A stretch of DNA of 64,000 bases from Elusimicrobiota bacterium (GTDB taxonomy: Bacteria; Elusimicrobiota; Elusimicrobia; UBA1565), in NCBI GenBank assembly GCA_041661185.1, contig JBAZUV010000001.1, positions 224,721-288,720 on the forward strand, read 5' to 3'. Position numbers and translations under genes: made by a program. The notes beneath the pieces were generated by a model that did no database searches, was not told where the DNA came from, and worked only from the letters and a program-made list of their open reading frames with translations. Position 1 is the first letter of the stretch, and every line of letters begins with the position of its first letter. Shown here piece by piece: positions 7,958 through 34,252 of this stretch.

Positions 7958-8638
7958 ATGGCTGGAGAGAAGATCCTTATCGTCGAAGATGAGAAGCCCC
8001 TCGTCAAAGTCCTCAAATACAATCTCGAGAAGGAAGGCTATCGCGTTGCCGCGGCTTTCGACGGAGAGGCCGGGCTGCTGATGTGGCGTCAGGAGCGGCC
8101 GGATCTCATCATCCTCGACCTCATGCTCCCCAAAGTTGACGGCTTTGATTTCTGCAAGACGCTCCGCCGGGATTGCCAGACTCCCATATTGATGCTGACC
8201 GCCAGGAAAGAAGAAGTCGACCGCGTCTTGGGCTTGGAACTCGGGGCCGACGACTATGTCACCAAGCCTTTCAGCGTGAGGGAGGTCCTGGCGCGCATCA
8301 AGGCCATCCTCAAGCGCGCCTCAGGGAAGTCTTCTCCCGGCATCGTCCGCGCGGGCGCGCTCGAGGCGGACCTGGAACGCTATGAGACGCGGGTCAACGG
8401 CAAGCCGGTTTCCTTGAGCCCCAGGGAGTTCATGTTCTTGCGATGCCTCTTCGAGGCCGATGGGAAGGCTTTGTCTCGGGACCAGCTTCTGGAGAAGGTC
8501 TGGGGCTGCGACAAGTCCATGGACATCGACACGCGCACCATCGATCAGCATGTCGCGCGCATGCGGGAGAAGCTGGGGCCGGAAAGCAAGAGGATCGTCA
8601 CGGTCAAGGGCGTGGGCTACCGGATCAAGCTGGATTGA
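7958..8638 (+). CDS. OmpR/PhoB-family response regulator
   Basis: Receiver domain (ILIVEDE, DLIILDLMLP, K at KPF) plus a winged-helix C-terminal domain. Confidence 0.9.
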   Translation: MAGEKILIVEDEKPLVKVLKYNLEKEGYRVAAAFDGEAGLLMWRQERPDLIILDLMLPKVDGFDFCKTLRRDCQTPILMLTARKEEVDRVLGLELGADDYVTKPFSVREVLARIKAILKRASGKSSPGIVRAGALEADLERYETRVNGKPVSLSPREFMFLRCLFEADGKALSRDQLLEKVWGCDKSMDIDTRTIDQHVARMREKLGPESKRIVTVKGVGYRIKLD

Positions 8639-9570
8639 TGCATAGATACTGCTTCATCGAGGTCCTGCTGGGAGCTGCGGCGAGCGCGGTCCTGGCGTTC
8701 TTCTGGCTTCGCCGTTCCATGAGCCGCCCCATCGCCGAGATCGCGGCTGCCGCGGAAAGACTGGCGCGAGGAGAGCATGACGCCCGGGTGAGGCTGCCGC
8801 CGACCACGCGGTTGGGCCGCTTGGGCGCGACCCTGAACCTCTTGGCCGAACGATTCCAGCACGATATCAGCGAGCTGCACCGGCTCGAGCATGTGCGCAA
8901 GGAGTTCGTGGCCAATGTCTCGCACGAACTGCGCACTCCGCTGGCCACGATCAAGGCTTATGCCGAGACCCTTCGCGAGGGCGCCCTGGAAGATGCGGAG
9001 AACCGCCTGGAGTTCATTTCGGAGATCGAAAAGAACGCGGAGCGCATGACAAGGCTCGTAGACGACCTTCTCACCATTTCGGCCCTGGAGTCGGGCAAGA
9101 TGCCTCCGGTCTTCGAGCCGGTGGACCTCATGGATATCGCGCGCGAAGTCGTCGTCGGGATGATGGCGTTGGCGCAGAAGAAGCAGGCCATCATCCGCCT
9201 GGAGACGTTTCAGGGCATTGCGCGGGTCCGGGCCGACAAGAACCAGCTCAAGCAGGTCTTGACCAATCTCATCGAAAACGCCGTCAAATACACCGGAGAG
9301 AAAGGGATCATCAGCGTCTCGGCTTCCATGCAGGAGGGCCGGCCCGCCGTCTCGGTCCGGGACAACGGCTGCGGCATCCCTGCGGAGTCCATTCCCCGCA
9401 TTTTCGAGCGCTTCTACCGCGTAGACAAGAACCGATCCCGCGAGTCCGGAGGCACCGGCTTGGGCCTGGCGATCGTCAAGCATATCGTCGAGGTCCACGG
9501 CGGCTCGGTGAGCGTCGAGAGCACGCTCGGCGAAGGCTCGGTCTTCCGCTTCACGCTCCCCGCCGCATGA
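8638..9570 (+). CDS. sensor histidine kinase (one TM + HAMP + HisKA + HATPase); no extracytoplasmic sensor domain
   Basis: ATG overlaps the response-regulator stop (TGATG). H-box HELRTPLATI and N/G boxes are present. Confidence 0.85.
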   Translation: MHRYCFIEVLLGAAASAVLAFFWLRRSMSRPIAEIAAAAERLARGEHDARVRLPPTTRLGRLGATLNLLAERFQHDISELHRLEHVRKEFVANVSHELRTPLATIKAYAETLREGALEDAENRLEFISEIEKNAERMTRLVDDLLTISALESGKMPPVFEPVDLMDIAREVVVGMMALAQKKQAIIRLETFQGIARVRADKNQLKQVLTNLIENAVKYTGEKGIISVSASMQEGRPAVSVRDNGCGIPAESIPRIFERFYRVDKNRSRESGGTGLGLAIVKHIVEVHGGSVSVESTLGEGSVFRFTLPAA

Positions 9571-9652
9571 ATCGTCCCCCCGGCGAAAGCCGGGGCCCAG
9601 GAATTGCTGGATCCCGGCTTCCGCCGGGATGACGGACATCCCGTTTCCCGGG

Positions 9653-9670
9653 CTGTCACGCCGTTGTCAC
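9653..9670 (+). promoter_or_regulatory. Pho-box-like direct repeat CTGTCAC-GCCG-TTGTCAC upstream of the DUF47-pit operon
   Basis: Two 7-bp repeats with 11-bp periodicity. Consensus Pho box is CTGTCAT-N4-CTGTCAT. Adjacent to the phoB/phoR-like genes. Confidence 0.5.
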
Positions 9671-9726
9671 ATACCTTTTACTTCGTCGCTATCGGATGCG
9701 CGCGGCTTTGCGCGTATCATCTTCGC

Positions 9727-10353
9727 ATGGCATTCACATTGATCCCGAAAGAAGAGAAGTTCTTCGCCTTGTTCGATGCGCAGGCCGCGCACGGAGTCGC
9801 GGCGGCCAAGGCTTTCCGAGAGCTGGTGCTGAACTGGGAGCCGCAGTCCCCGCTCATTGAGAAGCTCCATGAGATCGAGCATGAAGCGGATCTCTCCACC
9901 CACGAGATCAAGGACAAGATCAACCGGACATTCATCACCCCGTTCGATCGGGAAGACATCCACCTGCTCGCCAGCGAACTCGACGACATCGTGGACATCA
10001 TCAATGCCACGGCCGTGCGCATGAGCCTCTATCGCTTGTCCGAATGCCGGCCGCAGCTCTGCGGGCTTGCCGATATCCTCTGCCAAGCCGCGGAGTCGAT
10101 TCAAAAAGCGATCGCCTGCCTGTCGGATCCCGCAAAGAGCCGACGCCTCATGGACTGCTGCATCGAGACCAACCGACTCGAGAATGAAGGCGACAAGCTC
10201 CTGGCCCAGGCCATCGAGGAGCTCTTCCGCGCTCCCACGGACCCCATCGAGGTCATCAAATGGGAGCGGATATATGAGGCGACCGAGGCGGCCATAGACA
10301 AGTGCGAACATGCGGCCCATACTCTCGAAGCCGTGCTCGTCAAACAGGGCTGA
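9727..10353 (+). CDS. DUF47/PhoU-like phosphate transport regulator
   Basis: MAFTLIPKEEKFFALFD... of about 208 aa, the family typically encoded upstream of pit. Start chosen at the internal ATG after the Pho-box-like site. Confidence 0.8.
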   Translation: MAFTLIPKEEKFFALFDAQAAHGVAAAKAFRELVLNWEPQSPLIEKLHEIEHEADLSTHEIKDKINRTFITPFDREDIHLLASELDDIVDIINATAVRMSLYRLSECRPQLCGLADILCQAAESIQKAIACLSDPAKSRRLMDCCIETNRLENEGDKLLAQAIEELFRAPTDPIEVIKWERIYEATEAAIDKCEHAAHTLEAVLVKQG

Positions 10354-25962: not shown

Positions 25963-27168
25963 ATGACATTGCCTAAATTCAACCGCCCCATCCTTAAAAA
26001 AATACGAACACGGCTGCAGGAAGATCGTAGATTCATCCAAGTCCTGATCGGCCCGCGTCAAGTGGGAAAGACCACGCTGGTCCGACAATTCCTGGAGGAC
26101 GCTGATATTGCGCACCACTACGCATCCGCGGACGAACCATCACTGCACGACCGGACGTGGATCGAAGCGCAGTGGGAGATCGCTCGCTTGCGGGCCAAGC
26201 ATGCGGACAAGCGCGGCGCGCTGTTTGTTTTGGACGAGGCGCACAAGACGACGCATTGGTCGGAAGCGGTCAAGCGGCTCTGGGATGAGGATACCGCTTC
26301 GGGCATGAATCTTAAAGTCGTTCTGCTCGGGTCATCTCCTCTGCTGATACAAAAGGGTTTGACGGAGAGCCTTGCCGGCCGCTTTGAACTCATCCGAGTT
26401 CCGCATTGGTCGTTTGCCGAAATGAAGGAGGCTTTCGGCTGGAGTCTGGATCAATATCTCTATTTCGGCGGTTATCCAAGCTGCGCGGAGCTCGCCGCGG
26501 ACGAGGAGCGCTGGCGCCGATATCTGCAGGATTCGTTGGTGGAGACGACGCTGTCTCGGGACATCCTGCTGCAGACTCGCGTCGATAAACCGGCATTGCT
26601 GCGGCAGCTTTTCCGCCTGGGCTGCGACTACTCGGGACAGATACTCTCCTATCAAAAGATGTTGGGACAACTGCATGATGCCGGGAATACGGTCACGCTG
26701 GCGCACTACCTCGAGCTGCTCTCAGGCGTCGGCATGCTCACGGGACTGCAAAAATATTCCGGAACCCGTTTGCGGCAGCGAGGCTCCAGCCCAAAATTCC
26801 TCGTGCTCAATACGGCCCTCATGACGAGCGGCGCCGACCAAACCTATGGCGCGGCTCGCGAGAATCGCGACGTATGGGGAAGGCTCGTGGAATCGGCGGT
26901 GGGCGCGCATCTGGTCAATGGCCTTTCAGGAACAGGCACGGAAGTGTTCTATTGGCGCGAAGGCAATCGCGAGGTGGATTTCGTGCTGAAAGGGCACGGC
27001 CGCGTCACGGCCGTTGAGGTCACCAGTTCGCGCCGCAAGGATTCCTTGCCCGGCATGGCGGCGTTCGCCGAGGAGTTCCATCCGCAGAGGCAGCTTCTGG
27101 TCGGCGGGCAAGGGATCCCGCTTGAGGAATTCTTGTCGGCTCCCGTCGAGAAATGGGTGGCGCCTTGA
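25963..27168 (+). CDS. AAA+ ATPase (AAA_14 + DUF4143 architecture)
   Basis: Walker A GPRQVGKTT, Walker B VLDEAH. AT-rich start region; first gene of the lower-GC segment. Confidence 0.8.
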   Translation: MTLPKFNRPILKKIRTRLQEDRRFIQVLIGPRQVGKTTLVRQFLEDADIAHHYASADEPSLHDRTWIEAQWEIARLRAKHADKRGALFVLDEAHKTTHWSEAVKRLWDEDTASGMNLKVVLLGSSPLLIQKGLTESLAGRFELIRVPHWSFAEMKEAFGWSLDQYLYFGGYPSCAELAADEERWRRYLQDSLVETTLSRDILLQTRVDKPALLRQLFRLGCDYSGQILSYQKMLGQLHDAGNTVTLAHYLELLSGVGMLTGLQKYSGTRLRQRGSSPKFLVLNTALMTSGADQTYGAARENRDVWGRLVESAVGAHLVNGLSGTGTEVFYWREGNREVDFVLKGHGRVTAVEVTSSRRKDSLPGMAAFAEEFHPQRQLLVGGQGIPLEEFLSAPVEKWVAP

Positions 27169-27294: not shown

Positions 27295-27501
27295 AGTTAT
27301 CAGATAAACTGGCGGGCCCGATGGGGGCAATTTCCTACTGGTTTGAAGCGGTATATTGTTCCTTTGGTCCAGGAAGTGCATTTTATCCCTTCTCTGACTT
27401 TGTCTTGGCCCATCGAATTGAAGCGCATCCCCAATGGCGAAAAGGTCATCGTTGAGGTCTTGACTTGCCCTGTCCCTCAATTTGAGGTAGTCCTTATGTG
27501 A
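27292..27501 (+). CDS. AbrB/MazE-like (swapped-hairpin) small protein, paralog of 32775..33071
   Basis: PIELKRIPNGEKVIVEV resembles the AbrB looped-hinge motif and aligns with PVRLRRITNGEKVIWQT in the second copy. Confidence 0.35.
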   Translation: MSYQINWRARWGQFPTGLKRYIVPLVQEVHFIPSLTLSWPIELKRIPNGEKVIVEVLTCPVPQFEVVLM

Positions 27502-27505
27502 AAAG

Positions 27506-27545
27506 TTTCCAATCCCGTCGTCCCCTAAGACGATGGGGGCAATTG
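27506..27545 (+). repeat. att-like repeat R2 (tRNA-Asp 3'-end-like TTCCAATCCCGTCGTCCCC + TAAGACGATGGGGGCAATT)
   Basis: Matches 18 of 20 nt of the sense 3' end of tRNA-Asp (TTCGAATCCCGTCGACCCC). Other copies: R1 (partial) 27313-27332, R3 33006-33044, R4 33158-33193. Confidence 0.5.
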
Positions 27546-27564: not shown

Positions 27565-28008
27565 GTGACTAAGCCGAAGGCGGGCCAGGATTATCTTACG
27601 ACTACTGGATTGCCGGTCCGTTTCCTGAAACGGGACAGCGGATGCATGCTTTTGCAGAGTCTTTGGACGGATAATCGGTTTCTTGTTCCTGAGACCTATC
27701 CGCTTAAGCCCTTGAAAGAGAAGCCGTCTGGCCCGGATCTGCGCTCCACTCCGTACAAGGAGTCCACACGGCCGACGCCGGAGGAGAGGAATCGGCCACT
27801 GGCCCCTGTCATTGATGCTCTGCTGATGGAGGGCAGGTTGACCATGAAAGGCCTCGCGAGAGAGGTCAGGCGGCGGGCCAGTGCGGCGTGTTGGGGGAAG
27901 GACGTGCGGGCCAATATTCGATCCCGGATAAGCTGGTTGCAGAAGCGGGGGATGGAATTCCTCCGAGACGGTGGCGGCCGGCTTTGTATTCAGCGGAAGT
28001 GCGAATAG
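27565..28008 (+). CDS. hypothetical protein (possible winged-helix regulator)
   Basis: 147-aa ORF in the island. No confident domain. Confidence 0.35.
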   Translation: MTKPKAGQDYLTTTGLPVRFLKRDSGCMLLQSLWTDNRFLVPETYPLKPLKEKPSGPDLRSTPYKESTRPTPEERNRPLAPVIDALLMEGRLTMKGLAREVRRRASAACWGKDVRANIRSRISWLQKRGMEFLRDGGGRLCIQRKCE

Positions 28009-28055: not shown

Positions 28056-29339
28056 CTACTTCTCGCCACGCTTGAAGTTAAGATATTCCAGATCATAAGC
28101 ATCTTGGATGTTCTCGCCCTTCGTGAATTTTCGCAAGATTGCCTTAAATGCCGAATCAGTGGTTCCGAACCAGTGTAAGTAGTATCGCGACTTGATGACG
28201 CTTAGGGCTGATTGGCCCAGCGGATTGTAGTGTAGTCGGCACCAAAGCGCATGATGGAAAGTCAGTCCAGTATGCGCCAAGTTATCGCTTTTCCACTGAG
28301 ATATGATGATCAGATTCTGGTAATGGAAGAAATTCACTGAAGCAAGAAGATTTTTCGTGCGAATGTATTTCACCACGGAGAACGGTCGACTGGTATTGGG
28401 TGCCACATCTGGAGCATCCGTAGCCCGCAAATCCTCAAACGAAGGTGGATAGTTAAAAAATACATGGTAAAGAGAATGCCCGACGGCTGTTGCCTGGCCA
28501 AGATTTTTTATTTCAAAAGGGATGTCAAAACGGTGGGATTCGTTTTTCCACTCGGCTTGAACGGGTGCTGCCGCCGGAATTACATCCAAAATTGGGCGTT
28601 GTGAGTAGAGATATACATAAAGGGAACTCGCAACACCGACGATTGCTGCGACGTATCCCCAGGCTTTGGAATGAAAGAGGGAGATGAATTTGTCACATAA
28701 GCCGCCCTGCTTGGTAGGACTTCTGGAATACTTTTTGGCTTCCTGGAGTGCTGATATCCATTTGGCATATTGGCACCGAAGGAGCTTTATGCCCACAGTT
28801 TCATCGCCAACCTTAATCTCGGCTTTTCTGGAAACCTCCTCAAGTAGTTTGCTTTCTCTACCGCAGTAGCGTTCGATGAGGGCAATAACCTTAATGCGAT
28901 AGCTGCCCACAATCCCAATCTCATCTTTTACATCCCGATATGAGGATGATTGCTCCCTGGTGAGTTCACGTATCAAGTCATCGATTTCGGACGGGGGTTG
29001 GGACGCCTTGCCCGGGAGTGCCTCTAGATTTGTGCGGATCAAAGCGAGGCATCTATCAATAGCGTTTCCAAGAGGGCGAAACTGTGCGAGCGTGAAGTAT
29101 CCCCTGCCTTGAAAATCGGTTGTCCCGCTGCTTTGCGGGATTTCTAAATTCTCTATATCCCCAAAAAGATGGGGATCAAGTTCTTTTAGGCGTGCTATTG
29201 TTCGGATCGCTCTTTCAAAAAAAGGCCTGTGCGAATCGGGATCAAAGTACCTTCCACCAGAGCCGAACACTTGTCCAGAGAGATGGCGGTGTAATGTGTC
29301 AAGCTCTGGAAGATGCTTTTGGGCAATTTCGCTATTCAC
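28056..29339 (-). CDS. hypothetical protein with one central TM helix; last gene of the defense-like operon
   Basis: 427 aa, GTG start 4 nt after the DGQHR gene stop. TM segment WGYVAAIVGVASSLYVYLY. Low GC. Confidence 0.5.
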   Translation of the reverse strand: MNSEIAQKHLPELDTLHRHLSGQVFGSGGRYFDPDSHRPFFERAIRTIARLKELDPHLFGDIENLEIPQSSGTTDFQGRGYFTLAQFRPLGNAIDRCLALIRTNLEALPGKASQPPSEIDDLIRELTREQSSSYRDVKDEIGIVGSYRIKVIALIERYCGRESKLLEEVSRKAEIKVGDETVGIKLLRCQYAKWISALQEAKKYSRSPTKQGGLCDKFISLFHSKAWGYVAAIVGVASSLYVYLYSQRPILDVIPAAAPVQAEWKNESHRFDIPFEIKNLGQATAVGHSLYHVFFNYPPSFEDLRATDAPDVAPNTSRPFSVVKYIRTKNLLASVNFFHYQNLIIISQWKSDNLAHTGLTFHHALWCRLHYNPLGQSALSVIKSRYYLHWFGTTDSAFKAILRKFTKGENIQDAYDLEYLNFKRGEK

Positions 29340-29343
29340 GAAT

Positions 29344-30891
29344 CTATTCTCTGAAAAGTGGATGTGTCTTTTTGATCTCCGCGACCATTTCTCGATGGAA
29401 TCTCTTCCAGCCCTGAGAGCCTGTGTAGTTCTGTTGGAGCTTGCTGGTTTCCCAGTTCTTCCATCCTGTTTTTAGGGGTTGGAGGTAGCTCTTAATTGTT
29501 TCGTGATCGAGAGTCCCGCCATGTGTCCGCAGCATAGACTTCAGGAGTTTTAGGAAAGCAGATATCCCCCGGTTAGTAGCTATGATGTAACGGTTGGGAT
29601 CTGCCCATTCCTTTTTGAACAAGCTTTGAATTGTTGAGAAATAAGTGCGAAGAGCCGTGTTGTATTCATCGGCGGTATTTGCGGTATAGTGCTTTCTTAG
29701 CAAGCCGCGGGGGCCCAAGAGTCCTTTGAGATCGTAGCCAGCGAAGCCTTTAAGCGTAATACGCTGGTCGCCGACATCTAATAGTCTAATGGCCTTCTTG
29801 AAGGGGCTGATCTTGTTGAGTTCTACGACGACGCGGATGGCCATGAGTTCATTGTCCGCTTGGCAGAGGACATCATCCTTGGTGTATTTGAGATATGCGA
29901 CAAGATTTGCATCCATCCTTCGGGAGTTGTCATTGATCGCGATAAACGCATCGCGCTTTTGTGAGTCGTCTAACTCGCGAAGCCCAGTCACAAGAACGCC
30001 GTAATTGCGCTGGGTTATCTCATCGCAATGGCTGAAGCCAAAAATCCGATGTTGGCCATCAATAATCTCCATCGAGGCATATTCGAGCGGGATGCTGAGT
30101 GCGACAAATCGCGAATCGCATCTGGAAAAATTGACAGGGTTGTCATGTTCGTTTTTGAACCTATCAGCATTCTTGAGATTATGGGAGACAACCTGTGGGC
30201 TTAGATGAAGCACGACGTTTGTTGGAAGGATAGAGTCTCTTTGAGAAAGAAATTTGGCAATGCTTGGCAACCGCTTGGTCGATAGCATGCGCTGGTAGGC
30301 ATTTGCGTCGCCTTGAGCTCGGCGAAATATGGCGCAGGTTTTGAGGAGCTTTTCAGCAGGCATTGAGAAGAGGAAGAGTTCGGTGGTTGAGTGCTTATTG
30401 GGTTGGGTAAGTCGGACAGCCGGGACCGTGAGTGTGGCTTTCTCCTCTCTTGTTGTTATGCCTAGGGAATGAATGATTTCATATCTGGACCACTTCCCAA
30501 TAGCGTTTGCGATGGCCTCGAAATATGCCAGCTCATCGAGCCCCCAAACCGTATCACCATTTTCTCTGGCGAACTGCCGATCTGCTTCGGTAATCTCGTG
30601 TTCTGTTGAAATAAATAGGACGGCATCCGCTTTCAGTTTCTTTTTGATAACGTCGTAATCGTGAACATGAGTCGAAAAAGACTCTTTGAGTTCCTTCCGT
30701 GCCTTATTCCACCCTACGATAGATATATCGAGTTCCTCTTCGGTAGCAAAAAGGTCGAGAGTCCGTTTCTTGCCACGAATATCCACCTCCTTTTCTGCGG
30801 GGTCGCTGGAGTGCGGCTGAGTTTTGAATCCGGCTTTGGAGAAAAGTTGCCACACGCGTTTGTTTAGGTGCGAACCTTTATTAATTGGCAT
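29344..30891 (-). CDS. DGQHR-domain (DndB-like, ParB/Srx superfamily) protein with N-terminal nuclease-like region
   Basis: Literal DGQHR motif (MEIIDGQHRIFGF). 515 aa. Lies 5 nt downstream of the restriction endonuclease gene. Confidence 0.7.
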   Translation of the reverse strand: MPINKGSHLNKRVWQLFSKAGFKTQPHSSDPAEKEVDIRGKKRTLDLFATEEELDISIVGWNKARKELKESFSTHVHDYDVIKKKLKADAVLFISTEHEITEADRQFARENGDTVWGLDELAYFEAIANAIGKWSRYEIIHSLGITTREEKATLTVPAVRLTQPNKHSTTELFLFSMPAEKLLKTCAIFRRAQGDANAYQRMLSTKRLPSIAKFLSQRDSILPTNVVLHLSPQVVSHNLKNADRFKNEHDNPVNFSRCDSRFVALSIPLEYASMEIIDGQHRIFGFSHCDEITQRNYGVLVTGLRELDDSQKRDAFIAINDNSRRMDANLVAYLKYTKDDVLCQADNELMAIRVVVELNKISPFKKAIRLLDVGDQRITLKGFAGYDLKGLLGPRGLLRKHYTANTADEYNTALRTYFSTIQSLFKKEWADPNRYIIATNRGISAFLKLLKSMLRTHGGTLDHETIKSYLQPLKTGWKNWETSKLQQNYTGSQGWKRFHREMVAEIKKTHPLFRE

Positions 30892-30896
30892 AGGGG

Positions 30897-31442
30897 CTAT
30901 ACGTCAATTAGGATGACCTTAACGGGCACGGCCGGGAAGTGGCGCTTGAGGCGTTCAATGTCGTAAATCAGTTGCTCGCCATAGGAGACGCCCGTGGACA
31001 TCTGCTTATGCATCGCATGGCAGGGCACGATCTCAATGCCGACATCTGCCTTGTTCTCATTGAAGAAATACTGAAACTTGGCCATGTCGTAGAACATGAA
31101 CGCATACTTTCCGAACTGAACCTCGACGAGGACTCGATTCTTGACGAAGTCTACCTGCTTGAAGGCCCCCTCCACACGTATGGGGTAGTTCGGAAGCTCA
31201 ATGGTGTAAGTGTCGCGAAGCTCCTTGTAGCCTCTGGCGTGGAACGCGGAATGAAACAGCGCGTTGATCTCCTTCGGGCTATAGAGGAGTTCGCCCGGCA
31301 TGGTCTTCTCTTTGCTGACCTTCGATTTCTTGAGATTCTTGATGCTAGCAATGACGTCGTCGATTTCTTTCTCAAGTTTCGGATAGCGCACCTTTAGAAT
31401 TTCGCTACCTCCCAGGTGGGAGTACTCGTAGGCTTTATGCAC
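30897..31442 (-). CDS. type II restriction endonuclease, BglII-like
   Basis: VLVEVQFGKYAFMF matches the BglII catalytic-core pattern (TLVEVQFSNYPFLL). Overlaps the methyltransferase gene by 8 nt. Confidence 0.65.
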   Translation of the reverse strand: MHKAYEYSHLGGSEILKVRYPKLEKEIDDVIASIKNLKKSKVSKEKTMPGELLYSPKEINALFHSAFHARGYKELRDTYTIELPNYPIRVEGAFKQVDFVKNRVLVEVQFGKYAFMFYDMAKFQYFFNENKADVGIEIVPCHAMHKQMSTGVSYGEQLIYDIERLKRHFPAVPVKVILIDV

Positions 31443-32463
31443 AGATTATCTCCTTGAGCAGTTTCTTGCCCGCTCGACTCCGTTTGCCATCCAGGAGGAA
31501 TAATTGGTCGAGCTTGTCCTTCCCATTGCCATAGGTGGTCTCTGGCGGCAATGATAGGCGCGAGCTCTTTGGGTCGTAGATCGGGCGGTTCATGGGTCGG
31601 GTACGGAGCTTCCCACTGGCCGCAAGCATGATGCGGTCTCTCGCGACCTTGATGTAGTTGGGCATGATGTCCGCACCAGCGGCCTTGCGGCCGTGCCGGA
31701 TCGCGGCTACGGCTGTCGTGCCCACACCCAGGAATGGGTCTAGGACTCTGTCTCCGGGGTTGGTCATCGAAAGCACTAGGCGCTCGATCAGTTCCACCGG
31801 GAACTGGCAGGGATGGATCGTCTTCTCTACATGGTTGTGCTTTACGTTTGGGATGACCCAAAGGTCTCCGGGATTCTTTCCGAGTGGGTTGCAGGAAAGC
31901 TGTCCCGCTTTCGGCCCCTTGAAGTATTTCTTGCCGGGATATTTCTGGGGGATTCGGACGGGATCCACGTTGAAGATGTAGTCGGAGGACTTGGTGAACC
32001 AGTTGATCGTTTCGTAGCGCCCGGAGAATCTTTTTGAGCAGTGCAGGCCATGCTCGAAGTGCCATATGATCCGATTGCGCATGCGCAGGCCAAGCTTGGC
32101 GAATATCGTGTAAAGTGGGATATCCAGCGGAACGATTTCGTCCTTGCCGATGTAATTGCCGACTTGCCAGCAGATGCTGCCATTGTTCGACAAGACCCGG
32201 ACACACTCCTTTATGACTGATTCCTGTTGCGCTAGATACTTCTCCAGCGAAACGCGTTTCTCATAGGACTTCCCGATGTTGTAGGGCGGTGAAGTGACGA
32301 TGAGCTGGACAGAGCTAGCGGGCATCGAAGCCAGCAGGTCTAAGCAGCTTCCTTGGAAGAGTACTACGTCGGCTTGGGGCTCATAGGACGAAGATATGCC
32401 GGGACCATTGGTTTCCCGGACGAGATGGTGGCCTTTGCGGCGTGGAATGCGATATTTAGTCAT
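31435..32463 (-). CDS. DNA methyltransferase (beta-class N4-cytosine/N6-adenine; SPPY motif)
   Basis: LIVTSPPYNIGK motif IV and a C-terminal FxGxG-like AdoMet motif (DPFLGVGTT). Confidence 0.85.
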   Translation of the reverse strand: MTKYRIPRRKGHHLVRETNGPGISSSYEPQADVVLFQGSCLDLLASMPASSVQLIVTSPPYNIGKSYEKRVSLEKYLAQQESVIKECVRVLSNNGSICWQVGNYIGKDEIVPLDIPLYTIFAKLGLRMRNRIIWHFEHGLHCSKRFSGRYETINWFTKSSDYIFNVDPVRIPQKYPGKKYFKGPKAGQLSCNPLGKNPGDLWVIPNVKHNHVEKTIHPCQFPVELIERLVLSMTNPGDRVLDPFLGVGTTAVAAIRHGRKAAGADIMPNYIKVARDRIMLAASGKLRTRPMNRPIYDPKSSRLSLPPETTYGNGKDKLDQLFLLDGKRSRAGKKLLKEIICA

Positions 32464-32656
32464 TGACCTTTCTGAGCAAGCGGCTCAGCTCCCTGCGATC
32501 ATAGAGACGGTACTGGTTCACGGGGTGTCGCCGACACACAAGTTTCCCGCTGCGATCCCATCTCCTTAATGTAAGAGCGGACACCCCTAAAAGTTCCGCA
32601 GCATCTTTTACCGTCATGAATTCTCGAAAAGTTTTCATTGCGGTCACCTTAATCAA
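32456..32656 (-). CDS. small HTH DNA-binding protein (MerR/excisionase-like); possible R-M controller
   Basis: MTVKDAAELLGVSALTLRRWDRSGKL helix-turn-helix. Overlaps the methyltransferase start. Confidence 0.55.
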   Translation of the reverse strand: MIKVTAMKTFREFMTVKDAAELLGVSALTLRRWDRSGKLVCRRHPVNQYRLYDRRELSRLLRKVND

Positions 32657-32774
32657 CGTTAATCATTCTACTAAGCATCAGCGATCGGGTCAAATTTCTC
32701 ATGCATGAACGGACTTGAGCTGTGCCGGAAACGAAGGTAGCTTGGGGTTGCCCTATAGGGCAAGGAGGCTACAG

Positions 32775-33071
32775 ATGCTTAATGAATCGAATCCGCAGTC
32801 TGATACACCGAAGGTTCTGCGGATCACACTGGCCATGCCGGTCCGCTTGCGGCGCATCACTAACGGCGAGAAGGTCATCTGGCAGACCGGGCCCGATGAC
32901 TGTGGAGTTGAGATCGTCGACGTGACAGACGACGCGCGTGCCCGACTTCAGGAGCTACTTAGAATTCTCGACGACGCCGAGCGTCAGCTACGCAAGCGGC
33001 GAAAAGTTCAAATCCCGTCGGGCCCTAAGACGACGGGGGCAATTACCCACCACAAGAACGAAGGCAAGTAG
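32775..33071 (+). CDS. AbrB/MazE-like small protein (paralog of 27292..27501)
   Basis: LAMPVRLRRITNGEKVIWQTGPDDCGVEIVDV. The 3' end contains the att-like repeat. Confidence 0.4.
   Translation: MLNESNPQSDTPKVLRITLAMPVRLRRITNGEKVIWQTGPDDCGVEIVDVTDDARARLQELLRILDDAERQLRKRRKVQIPSGPKTTGAITHHKNEGK
33006..33044 (+). repeat. att-like repeat R3 (GTTCAAATCCCGTCGGGCCC + TAAGACGACGGGGGCAATT)
   Basis: Same unit as R2. Contains the hairpin CCCGTCG...CGACGGG. Confidence 0.5.
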
Positions 33072-33157
33072 TCGGTAAGCGGGATGTGCGATTTGTGGAA
33101 TTATTCGGAAGCGCCTCGGTGTCCTCGACGAGAAAAATGGGATTGCGCTCCGTCGAG

Positions 33158-33193
33158 AAGTTCAAATCCCATCGTGAGGTGCAGTCGGGGGCA
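33158..33193 (+). repeat. att-like repeat R4 (degenerate: GTTCAAATCCCATCGTGAGG...GGGGGCAA)
   Basis: Degenerate third copy, 70 nt before tRNA-Asp. Confidence 0.35.
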
Positions 33194-33260: not shown

Positions 33261-33339
33261 TGGCGGGGTCGACGGGATTCGAACCCGCGGTCTCCGCCTT
33301 GACAGGGCGGCGTGTTAAACCAGGCTACACCACGACCCC
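33261..33339 (-). tRNA. tRNA-Asp (anticodon GTC), CCA encoded
   Basis: Reverse complement folds as a cloverleaf: acceptor GGGGTCG/CGACCCC, anticodon loop CTGTCAA, T-loop GTTCGAATC. Confidence 0.9.
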
Positions 33340-34170: not shown

Positions 34171-34180
34171 GGGGAAAGTG

Positions 34181-34252
34181 TGGGCAGTGCAGGGTTCGAA
34201 CCTGCGACCCCCTCCTTGTAAGGGAGGTGCTCTACCGCTGAGCTAACTGCCC
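34181..34252 (-). tRNA. tRNA-Val (anticodon TAC), CCA not encoded
   Basis: Reverse complement: GGGCAGTTAGCTCAGCGGTAGAGCACCTCCCTTACAAGGAGGGGGTCGCAGGTTCGAACCCTGCACTGCCCA. All four stems pair. Confidence 0.85.

Follow-up and report, generated by a model that had tools for sequence, protein, structure and literature searches.

A type II restriction-modification cassette with a methyltransferase-linked DGQHR protein, joined to an unrelated 427-residue membrane protein gene, in an Elusimicrobiota bacterium

In this work, we have used comparative sequence and structure-prediction approaches to analyse a block of five genes in the genome of an Elusimicrobiota bacterium (assembly GCA_041661185.1, contig JBAZUV010000001.1). 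The stretch of DNA analysed, called here the window, comprises 64,000 nucleotides (nt; contig positions 224,721 to 288,720, forward strand), and the block occupies window positions 28056-32656. On the minus strand it codes for a small helix-turn-helix (HTH) protein, a DNA methyltransferase (MTase), a type II restriction endonuclease (REase), a DGQHR protein of 515 amino acids (aa) and a membrane protein of 427 aa (Table 1). The five open reading frames (ORFs) are consecutive, separated by an 8-nt overlap, a second 8-nt overlap, a 5-nt gap and a 4-nt gap, so the compact co-directional layout described in an original prediction made from the sequence agrees with the ORF coordinates. That prediction took the block for one transcript; promoter and terminator counts across the region do not exceed those of shuffled controls, so it is the tight gene spacing by itself that argues for a single transcript. 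It also read the first three genes as a restriction-modification (R-M) system and the last two as an undescribed defence pair. Our results support this interpretation in part: the conserved partner of the DGQHR protein is the DNA MTase, encoded upstream of it in the window, and the block is a mosaic of two unrelated cassettes.

Our results show that, much as had been expected, the first three genes code for an ordinary type II R-M system of the BstYI/BglII family, accompanied by a small HTH protein. The REase matches PF09195 (Endonuc-BglII) with 7.7e-21 (74.9 bits, cut-off 26) and the PADLOC model REase_II with 1.5e-37, and it can be aligned to BstYI (PDB 1sdo) over its whole length (residues 6-177, E 1e-35), the match to BglII being weaker. 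Its catalytic signature D-x8-E-x-Q (VDFVKNRVLVEVQ) is intact, and VDFVK...VEVQ is conserved in the BstYI alignment. The MTase, which matches PF01555 (N6_N4_Mtase; 8.9e-54, 183 bits) and PADLOC MTase_II (7.9e-87), is a beta-class amino-DNA methyltransferase, with a TSPPY motif IV near the N-terminus and a FLGVG motif I near the C-terminus of its translation. A site with a GATC core is predicted as the most likely target of the system. Site counts in the 64-kb window are uninformative for specificity, both for AGATCT (11 observed against 18.7 expected, z = -1.8) and for RGATCY and other 6-bp palindromes, none of which is significantly depleted. The HTH protein had been seen as a possible controller. 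Its upstream position suits such a role, but the protein is of the excisionase/MerR type and not of the Xre-type C-protein family: it matches MerR_1 (1.3e-10) and HTH_17 (1.7e-9) in Pfam, it stays below the cut-off of TIGR01764 ('excise'), and HTH_3/Xre is not among its listed matches in Pfam, NCBIfam and PHROGs. Only the two closest cassettes, L002 and L005 (L and P numbers are our handles for loci and proteins outside the window), have a homolog of it, 58-61% identical, upstream of their MTase. The HTH protein also matches the PADLOC model mad1 (1.5e-12), but in a generic way, and membership of MADS was rejected, as no other protein of the block matches the mads models of PADLOC.

The DGQHR protein was recognised by TIGR03187 (117.6 bits, cut-off 58.85), and its AlphaFold model (predicted local distance difference test, pLDDT, 88.2; predicted template modelling score 0.79) can be divided into three domains (Table 1). 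The protein carries the DGQHR pentapeptide, the QR pair, the FxxxN motif and the ParB-like fold of the DGQHR/ParB-Srx superfamily, and the DGQHR, Y-Q-R and FxxxN motifs show no variation across 148 aligned relatives. A match to the DpdB profile covers residues 154-484. The suspicion that the N-terminal region might have a PD-(D/E)xK fold was borne out as to the fold, which is that of the restriction endonucleases, but the canonical catalytic residues of these nucleases are remodelled, and the corresponding motif of the window protein reads N-E-D-W-N-K. N10, E33, D46 and N62 are present in all 26 sequences at least 45% identical to it, while position 61 is W, S, Q or E; position 63 is K, except in six of the 26 that have T, most of them from loci without a nearby MTase. 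In a distant branch of the family, the canonical E10...D46...E61-C-K63 is found in most of 108 sequences. To judge from these alignments, the nuclease site in the window's branch would be either inactive or rebuilt around E33, which is invariant there; a migrated acidic residue, as in Cfr10I, is a possible rescue of a remodelled PD-(D/E)xK site. The DGQHR profile had no match among PDB sequences, the protein had none to DUF262, DUF1524 or HNH in Pfam or to any family in PHROGs, and the family was not found among 50,697 phage records.

What accompanies the DGQHR protein in other genomes? We detected 361 relatives, the best 120 of which are full-length (~513 aa) with 50-80% identity, and gathered about 160 loci that encode relatives, 80 from genomes and 80 from metagenomes, which were searched with the window proteins and with hidden Markov models built from neighbour clusters. 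The family occurs in Elusimicrobia, Acidobacteriota, Binatia, Chloroflexota, Planctomycetota, Gemmatimonadota, Saganbacteria, Pseudomonadota, Bacteroidota, Bacillota and archaea. Of the close-branch loci (~513 aa, identity of 39% or more), 19 are informative, with 1.2 kb or more of sequence on each side of the DGQHR gene; 14 of these 19 have an N6_N4 MTase within 1.5 kb of that gene, and 8 have a BglII-family REase. Orthologs of the window MTase (47-74% identity) adjoin DGQHR genes in L002, L005, L007, L013, L016, L017 and others. The order MTase, REase, DGQHR was seen repeatedly (L002, L005, L007, L089) and is reversed in L017 and L087, and at many loci the MTase stop codon overlaps or abuts the DGQHR start codon and no further nuclease gene is present (L006, L009, L010, L013, L088, L091, L092, L100). 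Isolated two- or three-gene modules amid housekeeping genes were seen at L097, L010 and L007; at L097 the DGQHR and MTase genes stand between a sigma factor gene and xdhC. We also observed that the N6_N4 MTases upstream of DGQHR in L006, L009, L010, L088, L091 and L093 have 446-564 aa, with a C-terminal extension of ~190 aa that has no Pfam match, and that beside the DGQHR gene of L016 a 535-aa ORF (8275-9882, minus strand) joins LexA_DNA_bind, Peptidase_S24 and N6_N4_Mtase, either as a true fusion or as an artefact of crude ORF calling.

The distant branch consists of proteins of ~770 aa, 22-27% identical to the window protein over residues 9-513, in which an N-terminal extension is added to the REase-fold and DGQHR core. 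A C-terminal Rx4H HEPN-type motif is present in 49 of the 108 members, and two of three representatives tested gave a weak match to Pfam HEPN_Swt1 (E ~1e-4, below the gathering score). An MTase was found within 1.5 kb in 53 of 81 informative loci, 48 of these 53 being of the D12/Dam type, and directly adjacent on the same strand in 46 of the 81. In DpnII-type cassettes (Dam MTase, DpnII REase, N6_N4 MTase) of L064, L071 and L080, the long-branch DGQHR gene is inserted between the REase and the second MTase. A minority of the long-branch DGQHR(-HEPN) proteins have, in place of the MTase, a radical-S-adenosylmethionine (radical-SAM)-like protein (~546 aa) and a GHKL/HATPase_c_3 ATPase (~520 aa), a pair that could be an alternative DNA-modification module (L026, L034, L049, L062, L074, L084 and L172, the last on plasmid pNL1 of Novosphingobium aromaticivorans, NC_009426.1 119857-125348). 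The original prediction was right that the DGQHR protein stands outside any dnd cluster, as the genes around the block in the window include none of the dnd, ssp or dpd type and the DndB-type score is far below its cut-off. The linkage to the upstream MTase comes close to an alternative that it had itself offered, an accessory factor of R-M.

The proposal that the DGQHR and 427-aa proteins are an undescribed two-gene defence module coupled to R-M, one being the sensor and the other the membrane effector, did not survive the comparison. The two genes are on the same strand, with a 4-nt gap, and both have a lower G+C content at third codon positions (GC3; 0.54 for DGQHR, 0.49 for the 427-aa gene) than the MTase (0.70) and REase (0.72) genes, that of host genes being 0.77-0.88. 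In addition, the transmembrane (TM) and sandwich module of the 427-aa protein is found behind varied defence genes (the reverse transcriptase UG13b of the defence-associated reverse transcriptase, DRT, class and AbiD), as an exchangeable effector would be. However, neither domain of the 427-aa protein was found by tblastn and phmmer in any of the ~160 loci of DGQHR relatives, the only match being at L001, and these loci have no conserved gene downstream of DGQHR in any branch. The closest cassette, L005, from an Elusimicrobia metagenome-assembled genome (DGQHR 72%, MTase 74%, REase 81% and HTH 58% identical), and L002 have the gene order of the window cassette without the 427-aa gene; they finish at the DGQHR stop codon, and there the nucleotide homology changes donor. 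In blastn, window positions 29359-32527 are ~70% identical to L005 in one continuous 3.2-kb alignment, whose ends lie within the HTH gene and 15 nt short of the DGQHR stop codon, whereas L001 is the match for 28056-28676 (76% identity) and 29036-29330 (72%). At L001, a homolog of the 427-aa protein, P0002, is encoded directly after an Abi_2 gene (PADLOC AbiD, 1.4e-53), and no DGQHR gene is present. Since the homology switches from L005 to L001, the five-gene block is a mosaic of two unrelated cassettes, joined at ~29340-29358 in a one-off junction. The 427-aa protein also brings its own N-terminal domain, which elsewhere is carried by stand-alone TIR, HEPN and deaminase proteins in single-gene contexts. 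The lack of co-conservation of the two genes beyond this genome is also what the original prediction had itself named as a refutation. A dedicated sensor-effector pair is therefore very unlikely in our judgement.

The 427-aa protein has no family in Pfam, NCBIfam, PADLOC or PHROGs. Among 5.8 billion proteins it matched itself and one homolog, P0002, with 78% identity over the C-terminal half, and an exhaustive HMMER search of 1.84 billion representatives gave 41 relatives, which revealed two separable modules. Its AlphaFold model (pLDDT 86) shows a helical N-terminal domain (residues 3-106), a helical linker, a TM helix and a beta-sandwich; the single TM segment that had been noticed corresponds to one long helix of the model (Table 1). 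No enzyme-like match was found for this model. The N-terminal domain is joined elsewhere to TIR domains of the CAP12/Pycsar type or resembling ThsB/SpbK, to Aga-type HEPN/Hypoth_Ymh, to cytidine deaminase, to a PDC-S05-type C-terminal domain and to other TM segments. A profile search with it returned 22 proteins only, the module being either truly rare or outside the reach of the word index. At L166 (5001-6555) a DDE transposase lies between an N-domain gene with the RYFDP/SGTTDF motif and a CAP12/Pycsar-type TIR gene, which looks like a fusion gene split by an insertion sequence element. The TM and sandwich module is found alone (~210-225 aa) directly downstream of the defence reverse transcriptase RT_UG13b (1e-128), as with the 225-aa P0124 beside a DRT-class reverse transcriptase (L168 2096-4406; L169 279-2580), and may be an unrecognised effector partner of the RT_UG13b class; it is also fused to an alpha/beta-hydrolase or DUF2321 and, within P0002, comes after AbiD. 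Because both modules accompany abortive-infection-type components, the 427-aa protein is best read, as far as sequence comparison goes, as a self-contained sensor or adaptor joined to a membrane module.

We propose that the block is made of two units. The first (32656-29344) is a conserved four-gene cassette of HTH protein, N6_N4 MTase, BstYI-like REase and 515-aa DGQHR protein, whose first three genes would work as an ordinary type II R-M. Our best explanation for the DGQHR protein, to which we give a probability of about one half, is that it is a second DNA-acting arm of this methylation-based system, gated by nucleoside triphosphate (NTP). Its helical C-terminal domain would be of the DNA-binding type, its ParB-type nucleotide switch would load or clamp the protein on DNA, and the absence of the partner MTase's mark from that DNA would license its action, be it cleavage, nicking or recruitment of the neighbouring nuclease. 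In the window's branch, with its remodelled nuclease residues, the adjacent BstYI-like enzyme may do the cutting. Such an effector role, cued by the DNA mark of the partner, is suggested by the nuclease-fold domain kept in every member of the family, by the full catalytic set of the larger branch, about half of which has the HEPN-type RNase motif, by the interchangeable modification modules of the partner (Dam MTase, N6_N4 MTase, radical-SAM plus GHKL) and by the absence of the family from phages. The second unit (29339-28056) codes for a protein of rare make-up, in which a cytoplasmic helical domain is fused to a beta-sandwich module anchored in the membrane. Most likely it is an independent gene of the abortive-infection type that came to lie behind the cassette, at its 3' end, and its product does not serve the DGQHR protein as a dedicated partner. 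Our analysis shows the gene layout, the domains and folds, the motif states, the linkage to MTases and the mosaic junction, from which all biochemical activities of the block and its role in defence are inferred.

Several observations weigh against a second restriction arm. Two canonical catalytic acids are lost in the window's branch (E10 to N, E61 to W or S), so that it is doubtful whether the window protein acts as a nuclease. No MTase lies within 5 kb in about a quarter of the close-branch loci and a third of the distant-branch loci; an obligate restriction arm fits poorly with this, unless the MTase is elsewhere in the genome. The divergence of the DGQHR proteins does not co-vary with that of the MTases (Spearman rho 0.09, Mantel p ~0.2, at low power, as nearly all pairs are ~50% identical), and this argues against a tight specific interface between the two. 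Moreover, the 4-nt spacing suggests that the DGQHR and 427-aa genes are co-transcribed in this genome, where a functional coupling could have evolved locally. Finally, the DGQHR proteins characterised so far are a modification-driving ATPase (DpdB) and a transcriptional autoregulator (DndB), and not nucleases.

This last point leads to a different view, in which the DGQHR protein assists or regulates the MTase, either as a DNA-remodelling NTPase like DpdB or, like DndB, as an NTP-modulated repressor of the MTase or REase, analogous to a C-protein. Both characterised proteins belong to the modification side: the DpdB ATPase is needed for DpdA-dependent base insertion (PMC10164549), and DndB is the repressor of dndBCDE (PMC4507180). 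The window protein shares with DpdB the layout of a ParB-like domain followed by an alpha-helical remainder (PMC10164549), and phage N6_N4 MTases often carry directly fused ParB-fold domains (PMC12704722). The loss of the canonical nuclease residues in the window's branch and the commonest arrangement, an MTase gene followed by DGQHR with overlapping stop and start codons, would also fit. But a full REase-fold domain has been kept, and the older and larger branch combines a complete E...D...ExK, in about half of its members, with the HEPN-type motif, both being features of an effector. Phages could make good use of MTase helpers, but none of the 50,697 phage genomes has a member of the family, and the scores for the DpdB and DndB-type equivalogs are far under their cut-offs. 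Ordinary N6_N4 and Dam MTases are not known to require an NTPase helper. We regard a helper or regulator as possible, but rather doubtful.

The DGQHR protein could also be an autonomous defence nuclease, modification-dependent (type IV-like) or independent, as GmrSD, BrxU and SspE are, and be found near R-M genes only through the clustering of defence genes. The association of a ParB-like NTPase with a nuclease is the architecture of GmrSD and SspE (PMC4619093, PMC10164549), some 25-35% of the loci are without a nearby MTase, the two divergences do not co-vary, and the block itself is part of a small defence island with a PDC-S01 ATPase. What we observe goes far beyond loose clustering in islands: the genes are adjacent on the same strand, their stop and start codons overlapping in many cases, and this is seen in both of the deeply diverged branches, with three MTase families, and also in isolated two-gene modules between housekeeping genes. 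DUF262, DUF1524 and HNH gave no match. We consider an autonomous nuclease unlikely.

The surroundings of the block are given in Table 1. The G+C content is 0.46-0.50 over 28.0-31.5 kb and 0.59-0.71 in the flanks, and the tRNA genes beside the block were located as tRNA-Asp and tRNA-Val, so both points of the original prediction hold; in an Rfam scan of 24-35 kb these two tRNAs alone reached the gathering score. The flanking genes are housekeeping genes (phosphoketolase, GH94 glucan synthase, FMN reductase, CYTH protein, BioY, CHASE2 Ser/Thr kinase). Since an ATPase matching the PADLOC candidate PDC-S01 lies near the block, we read the region of 25.9-33.1 kb, with the low-G+C stretch, as what looks like a small defence island beside the tRNA genes. 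Two plus-strand ORFs next to the block, orf147 and orf118, are one convergent and one divergent with respect to it, have a GC3 of 0.67-0.68, between those of the block and of host genes, and gave no family match in Pfam, NCBIfam, PADLOC or PHROGs. The two copies of a 43-nt direct repeat, 86% identical and 5,500 bp apart, enclose orf147, the five genes and most of orf118. The similarity reaches ~150 bp further (27390-27544 against 32860-33044), where the 3' end of orf118 is present as a degenerate copy, a partial third copy of the repeat lies at 33151-33190 beside tRNA-Asp, and a hairpin, CCCGTCG-N10-CGACGGG, is found within the repeat. This may be an element that has been reiterated, either attachment (att)-like or marking a cassette boundary. 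The T-arm-like sequence GTTCAAATCC had raised the idea of a tRNA-derived att origin, which could not be substantiated, as the repeat is on the strand opposite the tRNA genes and no integrase was seen near the block or the repeats.

Table 1. Position of the genes, domains and other features of the block and its surroundings in the window.
Feature	Position	Strand	Description
HTH gene	32456-32656	-	66 aa; first gene of cassette
MTase gene	31435-32463	-	342 aa; 8-nt overlap with HTH gene
REase gene	30897-31442	-	181 aa; 8-nt overlap with MTase gene
DGQHR protein gene	29344-30891	-	515 aa; 5-nt gap from REase gene; includes literal MEIIDGQHRIFGF
DGQHR residues 1-145	30457-30891	-	Restriction-endonuclease (PD-(D/E)xK) fold; remodelled active site N10, E33, D46, W61, N62, K63
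DGQHR residues ~150-335	29887-30444	-	DGQHR/ParB-Srx-fold NTPase-type domain; Y199-Q-R, D278-G-Q-H-R282, F316xxxN320
DGQHR residues ~336-515 and stop codon	29344-29886	-	Alpha-helical C-terminal domain; DpdB/DndB-like layout (model secondary structure)
Mosaic junction	29340-29358	.	Homology to HTH-MTase-REase-DGQHR cassette stops, AbiD-linked 427-aa-type homology starts
427-aa protein gene	28056-29339	-	4-nt gap from DGQHR gene
427-aa residues 1-115	28995-29339	-	Helical domain, RYFDP...SGTTDFxGRGY motif
427-aa residues 215-246	28602-28697	-	Single TM helix (model); hydrophobic stretch WGYVAAIVGVASSLYVYLY in translation
427-aa residues 251-390	28170-28589	-	Beta-sandwich, TMEM106B-luminal/LEA-2-like
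Sigma-70-like promoter match	32665-32693	-	TTGACC-17-TAGAAT, 10/12; directly upstream of HTH start; weak evidence
orf147	27565-28008	+	147 aa; flanks block
orf118	32715-33071	+	118 aa; flanks block
AAA_14 + DUF4143 ATPase	25963-27168	+	401 aa; PADLOC candidate PDC-S01, E 2.7e-177; 0.9 kb from block
tRNA-Asp	33261-33339		Beyond HTH gene
tRNA-Val	34180-34252		Beyond HTH gene
43-nt direct repeat, left copy	27502-27544	+	Brackets block
43-nt direct repeat, right copy	33002-33044	+	86% identical; 5,500 bp from left copy

What do these results mean for R-M-type immunity? The R-M core of the window is routine, but the MTase-DGQHR module occurs widely, and the ambiguity of its mechanism is an informative one. 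The family has hundreds of members in at least ten phyla and is systematically coupled to MTases; its characterised relatives act on the modification side, while its own architecture resembles that of an effector. A choice between an NTP-gated restriction arm and a methylation helper or regulator would reveal the role of ParB-fold nucleotide switches in this type of immunity. As a joint and frankly tentative proposal, we suggest that MTases and DGQHR proteins with a REase fold and a ParB-type NTPase might constitute a widespread R-M-like immunity class, in which a ParB switch or clamp, and not a helicase-type motor as in types I and III, couples the recognition of unmodified DNA to cleavage or, in the long branch, to suicide by HEPN. 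The modification module would be freely exchangeable, the window would represent a derived form with cutting outsourced to the BstYI-like enzyme, and the 427-aa protein might stand for a new family of single-gene abortive-infection systems, made up of two modules that had no name before. Since both modules, the helical one with RYFDP/SGTTDFxGRGY and the TM-anchored TMEM106B/LEA-2-like sandwich, recombine with TIR, HEPN, deaminase, DRT and AbiD components, they are useful markers for mining abortive-infection genes.

How does the cassette compare with known systems? It resembles the BstYI/BglII/BamHI type II R-M systems in the full-length BstYI alignment, the D...E-x-Q motif, the adjacent beta-class N6_N4 MTase with its SPPY motif and the small DNA-binding protein in the upstream position of a controller. 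It departs from them in that this HTH protein is of the excisionase/MerR type and in having the 515-aa DGQHR gene as a conserved fourth member. Like DpdB and DndB, the DGQHR protein is encoded beside a DNA-modifying enzyme, although here the partner is an S-adenosylmethionine-dependent MTase and not DpdA or DndCDE, and an additional REase-fold domain is present at the N-terminus. Its scores are 71.9 bits with NF041060 (DpdB; equivalog cut-off 300) and 80.2 bits with TIGR04172 (DndB; cut-off 450), and it has neither a neighbour resembling tRNA-guanine transglycosylase nor dnd neighbours. GmrSD, BrxU and SspE combine a ParB-fold DUF262 NTPase and a nuclease in one polypeptide (PMC4619093), and the window protein similarly joins, in a defence context, a ParB-fold NTPase with a DGQ(Q/H)R motif to a nuclease-fold domain. 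In contrast to these proteins, its nuclease fold is an N-terminal PD-(D/E)xK and not a C-terminal HNH/DUF1524, no DUF262 or DUF1524 was matched, and the linkage of its family to MTases makes modification dependence unlikely. With the type III R-M systems (Mod/Res) there may be a functional analogy, a beta-class N6_N4 MTase working with a protein that has an NTPase switch and a PD-(D/E)xK fold, although the NTPase is of the ParB fold and not a superfamily 2 helicase, and no signal of co-variation was seen.

A further comparison is with a class described in silico, ParB nucleases with or without HEPN in R-M operons. Fusions of ParB/DGQHR/COG1479 domains to PD-(D/E)xK, HNH or HEPN and their association with R-M and other modification systems have been reported (Makarova 2013, PMC3632139), and ParB-Swt1-HEPN fusions (Saro_3948-type) and operons of a 'ParB nuclease + DNA methylase' (MAE_28990) have been listed (Anantharaman 2013, PMC3710099). 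The MTase-DGQHR theme is therefore already recorded computationally and is not new; for either DGQHR branch, we found no model in PADLOC and no experimental study in the literature. The distant branch of ~770 aa, with PD-(D/E)xK, DGQHR and Swt1-like HEPN beside a Dam MTase, corresponds to this class, of which the window protein is a HEPN-less relative (22-27% identical over residues 9-513). Unlike the listed proteins, the ~513-aa branch of the window has no HEPN, its nuclease motif is remodelled, and it pairs with N6_N4 and not with D12 MTases, with a BglII-family REase in about half of the loci. What is new in this work is the HEPN-less branch of ~513 aa, together with its coupling to N6_N4 MTases and to enzymes of the BstYI/BglII type and the figures given for this linkage.

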